From assembly GCA_009784935.1 (NCBI GenBank), contig WQXI01000016.1:442-24441 (forward strand): a stretch of DNA of 24,000 nucleotides, written 5' to 3'. Below the pieces are notes generated by a model. It was not told where the DNA came from. It saw nothing but the letters and a program-made list of their open reading frames with translations, and ran no database searches. A program made the translations under genes and the position numbers. Numbering within the stretch: position 1 is the stretch's first letter; the number at the start of each line of letters is the position of its first letter. This DNA comes from Treponema sp. (GTDB lineage: Bacteria; Spirochaetota; Spirochaetia; Treponematales; Breznakiellaceae). Below are positions 3,489 through 16,260 of the stretch, one piece after another.

Positions 3489-4601
3489 TTAACAGATAGT
3501 TCCGCCGCCGATTACAATATCCCCGTCGTACATTACAACTGCCTGCCCCGGCGTGATTGCGCGCTGGGGTGTATCAAATTCAATGTTAAGATTATTTTCT
3601 CCTGTCTGTTCTGCAGAAGCCCATTGTTCAGCTTGAAGATAGCGCGTTTTTACTTTTACCCGCATGGGCGTTTTTATATTGTCCAGCGCAATTATATTGA
3701 TGTTTTTTGCAGAAAGCGATTTGCTGTACAGAGCTTCATCTTCTGCAAGAGTCACAGTGTTTGCCTCAATTGACTTAGAAACAACATATATCGGAGTGTT
3801 AGCTGCAACTCCAAGCCCCCGCCTCTGGCCTGTGGTATAACGAATAAGACCTTTATGCCTGCCGATAACTTTTCCGTTTATATCGATAATATCGCCATGC
3901 GGATATTCTTTGCCTGTATATTTCTCAATAAAACTGCCGTAATCGCCGTCAGGTATAAAACAAATATCCTGACTCTCTCCCTTGGCGGCGTTTACAAGTT
4001 TTTTTTCTTCTGCAATTTTTCGCACTTGAGTCTTTGTAAGCGATCCCAGCGGGAAGCGGGCTTTTTGCAGCTGCTGCTGGCTAAGGCAGTATAATACATA
4101 GCTTTGATCTTTTTTTTCGTCTATTGCTTTTTGCAGAAGGAATCTGCCGCTTACCGGGTCTTTTGTTACCCGCGCATAATGCCCTGTAACAAAAAAATCG
4201 TAATCTATTTTTTTTAATTGCAGATGGATAGGGTTAAATTTAATATTACGATTGCATTCTATGCATGGGTTTGGAGTTGCTCCGCTTTCGTATGTTCTGA
4301 CAAAATGACGTATGACATGTTCGTCAAATTCTTTTGTAAGATCGAGGGTTAAATGTTCTATGCCAAGATTAAGAGCAGCTGTCTTTGCGTCATTTATATC
4401 CTGCAAAGAAGAGCAGCCAGTTTCTTCGCTGCGGAGTTTAAGAGTTAAGCCTGTACATTCTAAACCCTGCTCAATGCTCAAGGCAGCCGCAACAGTGCTG
4501 TCAACGCCGCCGGACATTGCGCACACTGTGCGGGCGCACACTGTGCGGGCGCACACTGTGCGGGCGCATACTGTGCGAGCGCACACTGCACTACTTAACA
4601 A
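3489..4601 (-). CDS. mnmA: tRNA 2-thiouridine(34) synthase MnmA
   Basis: PP-loop CAMSGGVDSTVAA, catalytic-cysteine block NPCIECNR, and QSYVLY, DICF, TGQRRGLG blocks as in MnmA. The start is uncertain. The ORF opens with TTG at 4601 and reads MLSSAV(CARTV)x4-CAMSGG. Alternative in-frame GTGs lie within the repeats and an ATG lies at 4517. Confidence 0.9.
   Translation of the reverse strand: MLSSAVCARTVCARTVCARTVCARTVCAMSGGVDSTVAAALSIEQGLECTGLTLKLRSEETGCSSLQDINDAKTAALNLGIEHLTLDLTKEFDEHVIRHFVRTYESGATPNPCIECNRNIKFNPIHLQLKKIDYDFFVTGHYARVTKDPVSGRFLLQKAIDEKKDQSYVLYCLSQQQLQKARFPLGSLTKTQVRKIAEEKKLVNAAKGESQDICFIPDGDYGSFIEKYTGKEYPHGDIIDINGKVIGRHKGLIRYTTGQRRGLGVAANTPIYVVSKSIEANTVTLAEDEALYSKSLSAKNINIIALDNIKTPMRVKVKTRYLQAEQWASAEQTGENNLNIEFDTPQRAITPGQAVVMYDGDIVIGGGTIC
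4519..4593. repeat. 15-bp tandem repeat, about 4.7 copies, each unit dyad-symmetric
   Basis: GCGCACACTGTGCGG occurs identically at 4519-4533, 4534-4548 and 4549-4563. Variants follow: GCGCATACTGTGCGA (4564-4578) and GCGCACACTGCACTA (4579-4593). The arms CGCACA/TGTGCG alternate with 1-nt and 2-nt centres. Confidence 0.95.
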
Positions 4602-6388: not shown

Positions 6389-6943
6389 TTACTCCTTTGT
6401 ATACGTAATAATAGAAAAATTTTCATAATTTACGGTGTCGGTTTTTTTCCAGCTTTCGTCTATTTTAGGAAAATAAGTATCACCGTCGTAATTTCCGGGG
6501 ATTAATGTAAGAATTATTTTATTTGCATAAGGCATTGCCTGAGTGTAGATTGATTCCCCGCCGCAGATAAATACTTTTTCGTAATTGGCACAAGATTCAA
6601 TGGCGGCATTTAAAGAAGAAAGAATAACCACAGAGGACTGCAACTGAAGTTGCTTGGAGTTACACGGAGTCTTTCGTCCGAAAGCACTATCTTCTCCGTG
6701 AAACTCTGTGTACTCCGTGGTAAAATTCTTATTTTTGGAAATAATTATATTCAATCTTCCGGGCAGAGGTTTAACAGGAAGCGAGTCCCAAGTTTTTCTG
6801 CCCATTATACACGGCCATCCAATAGTAGTCTCTTTAAAGTGCGCGAGGTTTCCTTTTATCGACCACGGCATAGCGTTATCTTTGCCGATAACCTGGTTTT
6901 CTGCCATAGCGGCAATTAAAATTATCTCTTGCTTCTTCTTCAT
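6389..6943 (-). CDS. folA: Dihydrofolate reductase carrying an in-frame repeat-element insertion
   Basis: DHFR blocks IAAMAENQVIGKDNAMPW, IMGRKTWDSLP..PLPGR.NIIIS, FICGGESIY, GDTYFP. At 184 aa it is longer than the roughly 160 aa of typical DHFRs. The extra segment TTEYTEFHGEDSAFGRKTPCNSKQLQLQSSV maps to the repeat at 6628-6720. Confidence 0.85.
   Translation of the reverse strand: MKKKQEIILIAAMAENQVIGKDNAMPWSIKGNLAHFKETTIGWPCIMGRKTWDSLPVKPLPGRLNIIISKNKNFTTEYTEFHGEDSAFGRKTPCNSKQLQLQSSVVILSSLNAAIESCANYEKVFICGGESIYTQAMPYANKIILTLIPGNYDGDTYFPKIDESWKKTDTVNYENFSIITYTKE
6615..6741. repeat. CACGGAG/CTCCGTG palindromic element, copy B (inside folA)
   Basis: The core 6628-6720 (93 bp) runs from CCACAGAGGA to CTCCGTGAAACTCTGTGTACTCCGTGG. 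It is near-identical at both ends to the intergenic copy at 13137-13214. Flank similarity (GAAGAA.. on the left, (A/T)AAATTCTTA..TTGGA on the right) extends to about 6615 and 6741. Confidence 0.8.
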
Positions 6944-6956
6944 CTAAAATCTTCCA

Positions 6957-7020
6957 TTCGTGAAAATACCGTAGGTATTAGTTCGTGCAAGTACCGAAGG
7001 TACTAATTCGTGGTAAAAAT
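6957..7020. repeat. 25-bp tandem repeat (about 2.5 units) in the thyA-folA spacer
   Basis: TTCGTG occurs at 6957, 6982 and 7007, an exact 25-bp period. Units are TTCGTG-aaaaTACCGTAGGTAttag and TTCGTG-caagTACCGAAGGTActaa. Each has a small internal hairpin (GTACC-GAA-GGTAC). The end TTCGTGGTAAAAATT resembles the CTCCGTGGTAAAATT end of the heptamer element. Confidence 0.75.
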
Positions 7021-11144: not shown

Positions 11145-11156
11145 TAAAAGAAGAGT

Positions 11157-11263
11157 TCACACGGAGACGCAGTGACACGGAGGACACGGAGCGAATTCTA
11201 AGGTTTTTACTTTTCCTTACCTTATTCTTTGTGATCTCCGTGCCTTTGTGCCTTTGTGTGAGG
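11157..11263. repeat. CACGGAG/CTCCGTG palindromic element, degenerate copy C (upstream of groL)
   Basis: Left arm TTCACACGGAGACGCAGTGACACGGAGGACACGGAG (11157-11192). Right arm CTCCGTGCCTTTGTGCCTTTGTGTGAG (11237-11263). Same heptamer words, imperfect inverted symmetry. Confidence 0.55.
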
Positions 11264-11361
11264 GAATTTACATAAAATAGCTATTGAAGAAAACGAGCGA
11301 ATTTGATAGCTTTATATCTGGGTTCTGATTTGAGCCCAAAATCAATTAATTTCAACCTTAA

Positions 11362-13020
<1,659 letters not shown>

Positions 13021-13121
13021 GCGAACTGTGTTGAAGAGCCTCACACGGGTCTTGCAGCGAAGCTTCTAGCAGGCACAGAGACACAAAGTTTTAATTTAGG
13101 TTTTAAGATTAGGAGCTGTCC

Positions 13122-13235
13122 GAGAAGAATTAGAGACCACAGAGGACACGGAGTAACACAGAGGTTTTTGTTCGAAAATCTTACGCTCTCCGTGAAACTC
13201 CGTGTACTCCGTGGTTAAATTCTTACTTATTGGAC
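13122..13235. repeat. CACGGAG/CTCCGTG palindromic element, copy A (groL-murJ spacer)
   Basis: Left arm CCACAGAGGACACGGAGTAACACAGAGG (13137-13164). Right arm CTCTCCGTGAAACTCCGTGTACTCCGTGG (13186-13214). The arms are imperfect reverse complements. Each arm has 3 heptamers spaced 9-10 bp apart. The outer inverted flank is AAGAATT..CCAC paired with GGTTAAATTCTTA. Confidence 0.85.
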
Positions 13236-13255
13236 ATCTCCTTTTTTTTGGTATG

Positions 13256-13288: not shown

Positions 13289-14920
13289 ATGACCATGGAA
13301 AAACAAGACGCCGTCGCTCAATCAATTAATACTCCGCAAACAGTAACGCAGACTGCGAAAACACTTGTCCGCCATGGAACTGTATTGTCTCTTTTAACGC
13401 TGATCTCCCGCGTTCTTGGTCTTCTTAGGGAAATGGTAAAAGCAAGGTTTCTTGGCACTACTGCCCTGTCCGATGCTTTTTCTGTGGCGTTCCTTTTACC
13501 CAATTTGTTCCGCCGTCTTTTTGCAGAAGGTTCTATCTCGGTTGCTTTTATTCCTACTTTTAAAGAACATTTACTGGAAGCTAATAAAGAAAAAACACGC
13601 GAGTTTTTATCATCTATGTTCACCTTTCTTACATTTTTTGTAACGCTTGCTGTTTGCGCCGGTATACTTGCCGCTCCTTTGCTTGTTCGCATTTTTGGAA
13701 TAGAAGAATTTGACGAAACAGTTTTTTTAACAAGAATAATGTTTCCGTTTCTTGGATTTATTTCGCTTGCGGCATTGTTTCAGGGTGTATTAAACAGCCT
13801 GCATATTTTTACGCCATCGGGGCTTGCGCCGATTCTGTTAAACATTGTTACCATTATCGCAGCTTATGTTTTAAGTCCTTACACCGCAAACCCAGCGCGG
13901 GCGATGGCGATTGGAATTCTAGTCGGTGGTTTTTTGGAAGCGGCGATTCAACTGCCGTTTGTATTAAAAAAAGGACAAACATTTTTTATAACAGGATTAA
14001 AACGCGCGTTTAGCAATCCCGGCGTAAAAAAAGTTTTACTGCTTATAGCTCCAACGATTATCGGAATGGCAGCTTATCAAATAAATGATTTGGTTTCTAC
14101 TGCGCTGGCAGGAAGAGCGGGCGAAGGTGTTGTATCCAGCTTGCAGTATTCTCTGCGGCTGCAGGAATTGTTTCTTGGCGTGTTTGCGGTTTCTATAGGG
14201 ACAGTGCTTCTGCCGAATCTTACCGAATACGCAAAAACTTCTCAGTGGGATATTTATAATAAACGGCTGGTTTCTTCCATTAATATTATTGCATTGATAA
14301 CGATTCCAGTTACTTTCTTTTCATTAATGGAAGGACAGAATTTAATCCGCCTTCTTTTTCAGAGTCATAGCTTTGATGAAACTTCGGTTACTCTTACTCT
14401 GGCGGCATTTACATTTCATATGCCGGGGCTTTTGTTTATCGCGCTTAACAGAATTATCGCGCCTGCATTTTATGCGCAAAGTGATACAAAATCACCGACT
14501 ATTGCGGGGATAATTTCTTTTGCCGTGAATATTACCCTTGCCGCTGTATTGGTAGGACCGTACCGGGGAGCGGGAATTGCGTTTGCGCTTACTATTGCTA
14601 GCGCGATAAATACAATTGCGCTTCTTGTTATGCTTGGCAAAAATCCCAATATTGACTTAAAAGCCGTTATAACTCCATCATTATTGTATATAATTAAAAT
14701 GGTTATTCTGTCTGCGCTTGCAATTGTTCCGTTATATTTTATTTCGCCGGTGTTACGCGAAGTTTTTACAGGACACAGCCGTATAATAACGCATGGAGCG
14801 CCGTTAATTATAAATGCTTTTATTTATTTTATTCTTGGAATAACAATGCTTGCGATTGTAAAAGATAAAAATTTATTGGGCTTGCTCGATATGATCAAAA
14901 AGAAAAAGGAAGTACAATGA
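13289..14920 (+). CDS. murJ: Lipid II flippase MurJ (MviN)
   Basis: 543 aa polytopic protein. N-terminal RVLGLLREMVKARFLGTTALSDAFSVAFLLPNLFRRLFAEGSISVAFIPTF is the conserved MurJ signature. Confidence 0.9.
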   Translation: MTMEKQDAVAQSINTPQTVTQTAKTLVRHGTVLSLLTLISRVLGLLREMVKARFLGTTALSDAFSVAFLLPNLFRRLFAEGSISVAFIPTFKEHLLEANKEKTREFLSSMFTFLTFFVTLAVCAGILAAPLLVRIFGIEEFDETVFLTRIMFPFLGFISLAALFQGVLNSLHIFTPSGLAPILLNIVTIIAAYVLSPYTANPARAMAIGILVGGFLEAAIQLPFVLKKGQTFFITGLKRAFSNPGVKKVLLLIAPTIIGMAAYQINDLVSTALAGRAGEGVVSSLQYSLRLQELFLGVFAVSIGTVLLPNLTEYAKTSQWDIYNKRLVSSINIIALITIPVTFFSLMEGQNLIRLLFQSHSFDETSVTLTLAAFTFHMPGLLFIALNRIIAPAFYAQSDTKSPTIAGIISFAVNITLAAVLVGPYRGAGIAFALTIASAINTIALLVMLGKNPNIDLKAVITPSLLYIIKMVILSALAIVPLYFISPVLREVFTGHSRIITHGAPLIINAFIYFILGITMLAIVKDKNLLGLLDMIKKKKEVQ

Positions 14921-16260
14921 TAACGAATGTCAGGTATAAAAACCTTCCTACGGTTGTTCTTGCAGGCCGTCCCAATGTGGGCAAGTCTACTCTCTTTAAC
15001 CGCCTGCTCAGAAAGCGAAGAGCAATTACAGATCCAACTCCGGGAGTAACGCGCGATCCTGTCGAAGCAGATTGTCTAATCGAAGGAAAGCCATTGCGTC
15101 TTATCGATACAGGCGGTTTTAAACTTGTAGACCTCGAAAGCATTGATAAACTTGTAGTAGAGAAAACATTAGAAACTATAAAAAAAAGCGATCTTGTTGT
15201 TTTGCTTTTAGAAGCTGGTGATATAACAAGCGAAGATGAAGAATTAATCGACCGCCTGCGTCCGTACCGAAAAAAATTGATTGTTACAGTTAATAAAACA
15301 GAAGGCGGCAGAATGCAGGCTGACTCCTGGAATGTTATGCAATTTGGATTTGATAAAGTTTTTATGATTTCTGCAGAACACGGCGACAATATCGGAGAGC
15401 TTCAGCAGGAAATATTAAAACGCCTTGATTTTTCCAAAGTAGAAGAAGACACAGAAGAGCAGGCTATCCGTATCGCGCTTTTGGGAAAACCAAACACCGG
15501 CAAATCAACATTATCAAACAGATTAACAGGAGCAAACGCTTCTATCGTAACAGATATTCCCGGGACTACAAGAGATACTGTAGAAGGCCGCTTTAAATGG
15601 AAATCAAAAAACTTTGTGATACTCGATACTGCGGGGATTCGGCGCAAGGCGAAAGTAACAGAAAACATCGAATATTATTCTGTTAACCGTGCGATAAAAA
15701 CAATCAATGACGCTGATATTATTGTTTTAATGATAGACGCAGAAGAGGGGCTCTCTGATCAGGATAAAAAAATCGCAGCTCTTGCTCACGATAAAGGAAG
15801 AGGTATTATACTAGCTTTAAATAAATGGGACATGATGCCTCAGGAAAAATATACTTTTAAAAATGCAGAAGACAGAATACATTTTCAGTTTGGGCAAATG
15901 GAATATGCGCCTATTATTCCCGTAAGCGCAAAAGACGGAACAGGCGTCGATAAAATTTTAAACACTGCGGTTAAAATGTACGGACAGCTTAATACTCATA
16001 TTGGCACATCGCAATTAAATCAAGCGCTGGAAAGATGGCTGCAGGAAAATCCACCGCCTTCCGGTCCTCGCACCCGCTTTAAAGTAAAGTACGCCGTACA
16101 AAAGTCCGCAAACCCTGTGCATTTTATCTTTTTTACTTCCCGCACAAGAGCTGTAAGCGATTCATATATTTCTTATATAAAAAATAAAATCCGCAAAGAC
16201 CTGGGATTTTCTCTTATTCCGGTGATACTGGAAATAAAGGATTCTACAGGAAGTAAATAA
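14917..16260 (+). CDS. der: Ribosome-assembly GTPase Der (EngA)
   Basis: Two GTPase domains with G1 motifs GRPNVGKST and GKPNTGKST, plus DTGG/DTAG and NKTE/NKWD. C-terminal KH-like domain. ATGA overlap with murJ and an AAGGAAG Shine-Dalgarno. Confidence 0.95.
   Translation: MITNVRYKNLPTVVLAGRPNVGKSTLFNRLLRKRRAITDPTPGVTRDPVEADCLIEGKPLRLIDTGGFKLVDLESIDKLVVEKTLETIKKSDLVVLLLEAGDITSEDEELIDRLRPYRKKLIVTVNKTEGGRMQADSWNVMQFGFDKVFMISAEHGDNIGELQQEILKRLDFSKVEEDTEEQAIRIALLGKPNTGKSTLSNRLTGANASIVTDIPGTTRDTVEGRFKWKSKNFVILDTAGIRRKAKVTENIEYYSVNRAIKTINDADIIVLMIDAEEGLSDQDKKIAALAHDKGRGIILALNKWDMMPQEKYTFKNAEDRIHFQFGQMEYAPIIPVSAKDGTGVDKILNTAVKMYGQLNTHIGTSQLNQALERWLQENPPPSGPRTRFKVKYAVQKSANPVHFIFFTSRTRAVSDSYISYIKNKIRKDLGFSLIPVILEIKDSTGSK

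Follow-up and report, generated by a model that had tools for sequence, protein, structure and literature searches.

Features of the groEL-murJ region

The repeat element reported here occupies the spacer between groEL and a murJ-like gene in a 24,000-nt stretch of a Treponema sp. contig, the whole of which is referred to as the window (Table 1). Each of its two arms is built of three heptamers, a layout already described by an earlier sequence-only reading of this DNA, and both the outer inverted flank and the TTCGAA in the loop are present as that reading claimed. The heptamers start at 13139, 13148 and 13158 in the left arm and at 13188, 13198 and 13207 in the right arm, which gives a period of 9-10 nt. 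A repeat finder aligned the arms with 82% complementarity across 28 nt and a gap of 24 nt, rather than the ~21 nt given before. Likewise, of the three A-opposite-C mismatches claimed for the arms, just two exist among the five mismatches, one in the outermost and one in the innermost heptamer; the rest comprise one G/A and two A/A. Read on the plus strand, the CACAGAG-GA end precedes the CACGGAG-TA end, and it is therefore the minus strand of this copy whose transcript can form G-U pairs. The anticipated better pairing of that strand through G-U wobbles was confirmed: the minus strand, with 9+9+7 contiguous pairs, reaches -61.3 kcal/mol (z -8.1), versus -58 kcal/mol (z -6.05) for the plus strand.

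Table 1 Genes and repeat-derived features of the 24-kb window (window coordinates).
Feature	Position	Strand	Description
Tandem repeat	4519-4593		15-bp dyad-symmetric unit GCGCACACTGTGCGG at a gene junction; three exact and two diverged units
folA	6389-6943	-	Reads the element in frame; peptide KNFTTEYTEFHG...SSVVILS
Type A copy in folA	6615-6741 (two-armed core 6627-6721)	-	95 nt; 15-nt mini-hairpin module in place of heptamer 2 of one arm
Solo right arm, sister CACGAAC subfamily	6956-7018	+	thyA-folA spacer; three (G)TTCGTG units ending TTCGTGGTAAAAATT, with two mini-hairpins between, AATACC-gta-GGTATT and AGTACC-gaa-GGTACT
Complete type B copy	11149-11269 (two-armed core 11157-11261)	.	114 nt upstream of the groEL start; ends TCACACGGAG and CTTTGTGTGA, period 8-9 nt, outer inverted flank AGAAGAGT; core is C16:11598-11702 in contig coordinates
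groEL	11377-13020	+	C-terminal GGM repeat
Type B left half copy	13033-13110 (arm portion 13033-13088)	+	By comparison with type B copies; right arm absent; flank GAAGAGCC, TCACACGGG, inserted module 13050-13073, CACAGAG, CACAAAG, partial type B loop GGTTTTAAGATTAGG
groEL intrinsic terminator	13112-13249	+	From the fold; encloses the reported element
Terminator stem	13112-13121 and 13232-13241		GGAGCTGTCC paired with GGACATCTCC, then T8 at 13242-13249
Reported element	13122-13235 (two-armed core 13136-13215)	.	Type A copy, 80 nt from ACCAC to GTGGT
Outer inverted flank	13125-13131 and 13218-13224		AAGAATT and AATTCTT
Left arm	13136-13163		ACCACAGAG-ga-CACGGAG-taa-CACAGAG, 28 nt
Loop	13164-13187		TTCGAA at 13171-13176
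Right arm	13188-13215		CTCCGTG-aaa-CTCCGTG-ta-CTCCGTGGT, 28 nt
murJ-like gene	13289-14920	+	Downstream of groEL

The reported element forms the loop of the groEL terminator, and the composite folds as a single long hairpin in front of the U-run. Pairing between a copy's own flanks is stronger here than at any other of 54 copies. In this position the element does no more than lengthen the terminator hairpin and is probably neutral.

The occurrence of multiple copies, which the sequence-only reading had asserted, is evident within the window itself: it holds three two-armed copies, one half copy and one solo arm of a sister subfamily. Chance is excluded as the source of the heptamer arrays, since the triple-heptamer pattern did not occur once in 100 shuffles, CTCCGTG is found 11 times in the window versus 1.2 expected (a roughly nine-fold excess), and a control pattern read backwards had close to zero matches in 41 genomes.

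Family size, subfamilies and the two ends

A genome-wide search for triple heptamers located copies far beyond the window. The source genome (G000; 2.37 Mb, 39.7% GC, 68 contigs, 94.6% complete) contains 134 clusters of at least three CACRGAG/CTCYGTG heptamers, among them 54-57 type A copies that are complete from ACCACRGAG to CTCYGTGGT. Relaxing the motifs to CACRRAG/CTYYGTG yields 88 two-armed clusters. The family comprises at least three subfamilies in this genome. Type B copies have the ends TCACACRRAG and CTYYGTGTGA, a period of 8-9 nt and a conserved loop hairpin, and the CACGAAC type, with 27 arrays, has the ACCAC...GTGGT terminus in common with type A.

Conserved termini, as expected of a mobile hairpin, are present across the copies. 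The consensus ends of type A are the terminal inverted repeats ATAAGAATTTA-ACCACRGAG... and ...CTCYGTGGT-TAAATTCTTAT, and conservation runs ~10 nt past the ACCACRGAG and CTCYGTGGT ends before it ceases. Type A copies measure 50-129 nt, within the size usual for MITEs (<~600 bp), and are dispersed and free of a transposase gene of their own. They fall into length classes of ~64-72, 80, 95 and 110-117 nt, and the 80-, 95- and 110-nt classes arise because 15-nt mini-hairpin modules substitute the second heptamer of either arm. Examples of such modules are CTGCAAC-nnnn-GTTGCAG, GGCAAC-tgta-GTTGCC and GCTGTCC-gca-GGACAGC; they are seen, for instance, at window positions 6636-6655, at C1:108429-108447 and at C66:1925-1941. 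The module stems vary among copies yet remain complementary (CTGCAAC/GTTGCAG, GGCAAC/GTTGCC, GCTGTCC/GGACAGC, CGAACC/GGTTCG). In the CACGAAC subfamily the modules occupy the spacers.

Orienting the copies reveals two forms of end, CCACGGAG-TA-CACGGAG at one side of the element and CCACAGAG-GA-CACGGAG at the opposite side. In 36 of 54 copies the outer heptamers disagree, and in just four do both carry G; of 19 copies in the oriented alignment, 16 have G-U as the outermost variable pair. The ends differ at two fixed positions, both in the source genome and in the relative G020. Because this difference is consistent, the A-C mismatches represent a fixed distinction between left and right ends and not random decay.

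Arm pairing and covariation

The sequence-only reading had offered a structured RNA as one alternative and had proposed a test for compensatory changes between the arms. No such signal was obtained: the covariation score is 0.053 versus 0.052 for shuffled alignments, 227 of 500 shuffles reach the observed value, and two pairs have changed on both sides. Complementarity within a copy (0.64) does not exceed that between copies (0.69). On the G-U-capable strand, 92.7% of arm cells are able to pair. Among copies in tandem contexts this strand is sense in 4 and antisense in 10, and among copies within ORFs it is sense in 6 and antisense in 5; these splits show no orientation bias to transcription. 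An Rfam scan returned no matches. With about a quarter of the copies in ORFs in addition, the structured RNA was rejected. Nor are the copies intrinsic terminators as a family, as the consensus ends in ATTCTTAT without a T-run, and the T8 tract is found only at the enclosing groEL stem.

The heptamers are conserved and the spacers are often non-complementary (e.g. TAA opposite AAA). Heptamer conservation, the helical-turn period and the distinct ends are better accommodated by binding-site arrays in terminal inverted repeats than by a selected RNA hairpin, and the potential to form a hairpin follows automatically from the inverted repeat. The idea of an iteron-like array, also raised earlier, survives in part: the heptamers do look like repeated protein-binding sites, but they are arranged as transposon-style terminal inverted repeats, in inverted pairs at more than 100 loci, and not as a replication origin.

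Mobility and insertion sites

The number of triple-heptamer arrays ranges from 0 to 162 per genome across 41 relatives. Orthologous sites are polymorphic for the presence of the element. The groEL-murJ spacer of the relative G047 has no element, just a simple terminator, GGGCTGTCTG-gaaa-CAGGCAGCCC-T6, and sites on contigs C59 and C10 of the source genome are empty where the metagenome contigs L236 and L182 are filled. The exact 27-nt arm is present on more than 120 contigs from a handful of JGI metagenomes; a metagenome scan with the left flank of the reported copy gave no match. The element family is therefore mobile, or was so recently. In another relative, G021, the groEL-murJ spacer (locus L041, G021:C2:75900-76960) has an opposite-strand 218-aa ORF instead of a repeat element.

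A search for target-site duplications, also suggested by the sequence-only reading, found none by position-weight analysis, inspection of flanks, or counts of direct and inverted k-mers. The flanks of 116 copies share no consistent direct repeat, with direct matches about as frequent as inverted ones; their AT-rich sequence (TTTA/TTAA) could mask a duplication of TTA or TTAA.

Mapped relative to genes, the 88 two-armed clusters comprise 33 in tandem spacers, 16 in convergent and 10 in divergent ones, 22 in long ORFs and 7 at contig ends. Intergenic placement is approximately proportional to the share of each kind of intergenic DNA, and about a quarter of the copies lies inside ORFs; the family tolerates translation. 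In-frame copies are found in folA, ilvB, mutL, lnt, trpF, ispE, an ABC transporter gene and other genes, and four of the inserts, in mutL, lnt, ilvB and the ABC transporter, were confirmed as interdomain from the Pfam matches. The folA loop is 20-25 residues shorter in most relatives. The same loop carries other heptamer-like inserts in the congener sequences L149, L152 and L154-L157 (FTRRHGGHGEHE; repeated SSVP...CPQE), so insertion at this surface loop of DHFR seems to be either recurrent or ancient. In ilvB two element-derived segments (C29:15279-15371 and 15825-15910) occupy different variable linkers, and both encode the near-identical peptide FRTQNS[K/E]LSVRTAELR[E/A]LRG. The use of ilvB as a clean empty-site comparison was abandoned, as its linker length varies in all relatives.

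Insertion into existing palindromes or terminators was considered as a general rule and rejected. A copy's own flanks pair no better than do those of other copies, and only the reported copy is clearly nested; hairpin nesting is thus not the rule.

A long form encoding a GxxExxY protein

A long form with the same arms as the MITE-like copies was found in the source genome. At C2:22937-23396 (460 bp), type A arms enclose a 123-aa ORF, the only ORF in the long form, which matches TIGR04256 (GxxExxY; E 1.5e-42) and PF13366 (PDDEXK_3), and thus encodes a putative PD-(D/E)XK protein. A second copy, C4:45726-45968 (243 bp), is the C2 long form from which 217 bp have been deleted internally, as would be expected of a step from an autonomous element to a MITE. 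The C2 and C4 copies are homologous for 46 nt upstream of the left arm and for 20 nt past the right arm, and since homology extends beyond the arms, the long form may not truly end there. A small ORF (MKTNKKFK...) in the common 46 nt continues through the arm.

The other GxxExxY gene of this genome, C28:400-744, has type B arms; there is no third. Small upstream ORFs that begin outside the left arm and end at the GxxExxY start were observed as MKTNKKFKDSVCRINNHRVHGV... (C2:22925-23035, locus L131) and MKTNFKKKFHTETQRHKEH... (C28:310-400, locus L020). Relatives differ at their CACGAAC-type loci, where the nuclease reading frame is extended at the N-terminus by the left arm (LTTNHTNQHEQ).

Other candidate genes were sought in the source genome. 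A Y1/RAYT gene (PF01797) had no match in this 94.6%-complete assembly, and the four-helix-bundle gene (TIGR02436), considered as alternative cargo, is absent from it. Eleven matches to TIGR01784 were recorded, e.g. C29:19114-19908, C4:3837-4775 and C28:868-1182, the Rpn/YhgA-like PD-(D/E)XK (PD-(D/E)XK_2) 'putative transposase' of Treponema denticola. One of the matches, a partial copy, immediately follows the right arm of the C28 GxxExxY element.

The GxxExxY protein

TIGR04256/PF13366 genes number in the thousands in Bacteroidota, Spirochaetota, the PVC group and related phyla. To our knowledge, GxxExxY proteins belong to no known transposase family. Across 39 sequences from five phyla four residues do not vary, E27 (of GxxExxY), D67, E77 and K79, and these constitute the classical E...D...ExK nuclease signature. 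An AlphaFold model was obtained with pLDDT 93 and pTM 0.86. Its closest folds in the PDB are the Holliday-junction resolvase Hjc, lambda exonuclease, Cas4 (SSO0001) and Bax1; the matches are weak (E ~2e-3, TM 0.43-0.56), which fits a minimal PD-(D/E)XK domain without a close solved relative, and a sequence search of the PDB gave no match. From the conserved signature and the model, the nuclease looks active.

Sequence identity between proteins of Spirochaetota, Bacteroidota, Kiritimatiellota, Lentisphaerota and Cloacimonadota is 62-77%, with a mean column identity of 82%. For a small accessory gene this is unusually high, which points to frequent transfer or strong constraint. The closest named relative of the nuclease gene of the source genome is from a Treponema MAG. 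A superfamily survey of 2012 entered PF13366 as 'Unknown', with multiple transfers. Searches of the literature for GxxExxY, PF13366 and Treponema repeats found no paper on the function of the protein or on flanking repeats.

GxxExxY loci in other genomes

All 18 intact GxxExxY loci in 40 congeneric genomes are flanked by inverted arrays of short repeats. The repeated word varies among loci: CACRGAG, CACRRAG with TCACAC ends, CGCAGAG, CACGAAC, or ACGGATTA/AATCTGTG. The arm type follows the clades of the protein tree, with 12 label changes versus a mean of 19.7 for shuffled labels (matched by none of 200 shuffles), and the clade of CACGAAC-armed proteins has a support of 97/97. This correlation could arise from physical linkage alone.

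The analysis was extended to 80 further loci (L043-L122) from Bacteroidota, Kiritimatiellia, Lentisphaerota, Cloacimonadota and others, 76 of them with full flanks. These share the plan, with TTAACC[AG]C[AG][AG]AG units upstream and CTYYGYGGTTAA downstream. Strict AACCRCRRAG...CTYYGYGGTT termini are present at 36 of the 76. At 29 of the 76, a purine-strand array upstream is combined with a pyrimidine-strand array downstream, versus six with the opposite arrangement and one among distal control flanks. Unit-specific variants recur in both arms of individual loci: at L046, for instance, the succession CACAGAG, CGCGGAG, CGCAGAG of one arm is mirrored in reverse order by the other. No excess of sense-strand wobble was seen in the long forms (170 versus 228 in loose alignments of 67 loci). 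The Bacteroidota genomes contain 17-61 array matches each, both strands summed, many of which are gene-less palindromes of 60-80 nt, and the same genomes have 2-6 GxxExxY genes each.

Arrays and genes do not always coincide. A GxxExxY gene was not detected in the array-rich genomes G008 (107 arrays) and G004 (53 arrays). In the source genome no CACGAAC-armed gene was found despite its 27 CACGAAC arrays, and the two thus do not strictly co-occur. Incompleteness of the MAGs may account for some of these gaps.

Interpretation

The reading that we favour, though with appreciable doubt, is that the element belongs to a non-autonomous, MITE-like family whose long form encodes a GxxExxY protein of ~120 aa, a minimal PD-(D/E)XK nuclease that would mobilise the copies. 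That the element is a MITE-like mobile hairpin had been put forward by the sequence-only reading; it is supported by more than 100 dispersed copies, the differences in copy number between congeners, the empty orthologous sites, the long form with its deletion intermediate, and two consistently different termini. Each end is a three-heptamer array on one face of the helix, capped by ATAAGAATTTA-ACCAC. The heptamers would serve as repeated binding sites of a protein that synapses both ends. This protein may be the GxxExxY nuclease acting in trans, as suggested by its linkage to the arms, by their co-variation and by analogy to REP/RAYT, and the GxxExxY protein and the heptamers would then parallel RAYT and REP/REPIN, but with an enzyme of restriction-endonuclease fold. 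More tentatively, and with somewhat more doubt than belief, the GxxExxY proteins may be the enzymes of an unrecognised class of bacterial mobile element in which a minimal PD-(D/E)XK nuclease binds heptamer arrays, spaced by a helical turn, at both ends and spreads gene-less palindromes, including in frame into essential genes. The 62-77% identity of the proteins, unusually high for a selfish enzyme, counts against the favoured explanation, as does the loose co-occurrence of arrays and genes in G008, G004 and the source genome. Further points against it are that no target-site duplication could be defined, that GxxExxY is not known as a transposase family, that linkage alone could produce the arm-clade correlation, and that the long form may extend past its arms.

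It is conceivable, although unlikely, that another enzyme, of the host or an unrecognised transposase, moves the palindromes, and that GxxExxY is a selfish passenger of the homing type, which cuts empty palindromes and is copied into their loops by repair. Invariably the gene occupies the loop enclosed by the arms and keeps a constant orientation, as such a passenger would, and at loci L043 and L053 its flanks are two complete short palindromes in place of half arms; the existence of array-rich genomes without a detectable GxxExxY gene and the resemblance of the fold to minimal cutting enzymes such as Hjc point in the same direction. However, the search yielded no other candidate enzyme, with the source genome lacking a Y1/RAYT gene, and the arm type tracks the protein clade, which is unexpected for free hopping between resident palindromes. 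The arms, moreover, would provide only ~28 nt of homology for repair-mediated copying.

A function of the hairpin in RNA or transcription, for example as terminator extension, RNase III site or mRNA stabiliser, with the element kept for the host and spread by duplication, appears very improbable. Covariation equals that of shuffles, complementarity is no higher within copies than between them, the G-U-capable strand has no preferred orientation, 22 of 88 copies are in ORFs, terminator nesting is not general and no Rfam family matches; these results outweigh the fold of the reported copy, which on both strands is far better than that of shuffles, its position inside a terminator with a U8 tract, the high pairable fraction of the arms on the G-U-capable strand and the one G-U pair conserved in 16 of 19 copies. 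We give hardly any credence to the proposal that the arrays are sites of a host DNA-binding protein (nucleoid-organising, regulatory or iteron-like) and are not mobile as such. The 9-10 bp period, which puts the heptamers on one helical face, and their greater conservation relative to the spacers would be expected of such sites, but the inverted pairs with conserved outer termini at more than 100 scattered loci, ORFs included, would not. Close relatives are without arrays, so no conserved host function relies on them, there is no rep gene or origin context, and a gene-bearing long form and a deletion intermediate exist.

Mobilisation by the nuclease, as favoured here, gives the widespread GxxExxY family a testable role and, if true, would be the first functional context for a large and highly conserved protein family. 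From a practical viewpoint, the heptamer repeats disrupt the assembly of termite-gut spirochaete MAGs and are easily confused with terminators or small RNAs.

Comparison with known systems

The closest parallel is with the REP/REPIN-RAYT systems. As in these, one or a few protein genes per genome are situated between inverted short repeats, the same repeat recurs in tens to hundreds of gene-less palindromic copies, and the repeat sequence differs between protein lineages, here in that the arm type follows the GxxExxY clade. The relation is one of analogy and not of membership, because GxxExxY has another fold: RAYTs are IS200/IS605-like Y1 HUH enzymes, whereas GxxExxY is of the PD-(D/E)XK type, and the source genome has no Y1_Tnp gene (PF01797). 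The arms also differ, consisting of three heptamers at a helical-turn period rather than a single 20-40 nt palindrome with a GTAG/CGTC tag. Unlike the strictly extragenic REP/REPIN sequences, a quarter of the two-armed heptamer copies (22 of 88) are in ORFs. If the role of the nuclease is as favoured above, a transposase-free, restriction-fold nuclease would join the short list of enzymes of REP/MITE repeats; on the more tentative reading of a new element class, the REPIN/RAYT lifestyle would have been invented a second time, independently.

Translated copies invite comparison with the Rickettsia palindromic elements (RPEs), which are reportedly ~100-nt palindromes in frame in housekeeping genes, translated as loop or linker peptides. 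The heptamer palindromes resemble them in their in-frame positions in folA, ilvB, mutL, lnt, trpF, ispE and the ABC transporter gene. They belong to another phylum and apparently have another sequence, and the heptamer family has a gene-bearing long form whereas RPEs are not known to have an associated protein gene. If confirmed, Rickettsia would be joined by a second bacterial lineage whose housekeeping proteins routinely include a translated palindromic repeat, and the evolutionary origin of new linker peptides therefore becomes testable.

Bacterial MITEs such as Correia/NEMIS of Neisseria are likewise short, non-coding and multi-copy, with terminal inverted repeats and positions near gene ends; as with these, long transcript hairpins are possible and the copies derive from a longer element by internal deletion. 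In contrast to Correia/NEMIS, no target-site duplication was seen in the heptamer family, its long form has no recognised DDE or serine transposase, and its ends are internally repetitive. In this last respect the family resembles the ends of Tn7 (TnsB sites) and the att ends of Mu, in which several short protein-binding motifs form non-identical left and right ends; the heptamer-family ends are multi-motif and non-identical in the same manner. Tn7 TnsA is itself a PD-(D/E)XK nuclease, a precedent for a restriction-fold nuclease in transposition. Tn7 and Mu also require a DDE transposase and have ends of hundreds of bp on large cargo, whereas the whole long form of the heptamer family spans 460 bp with a single 123-aa ORF.
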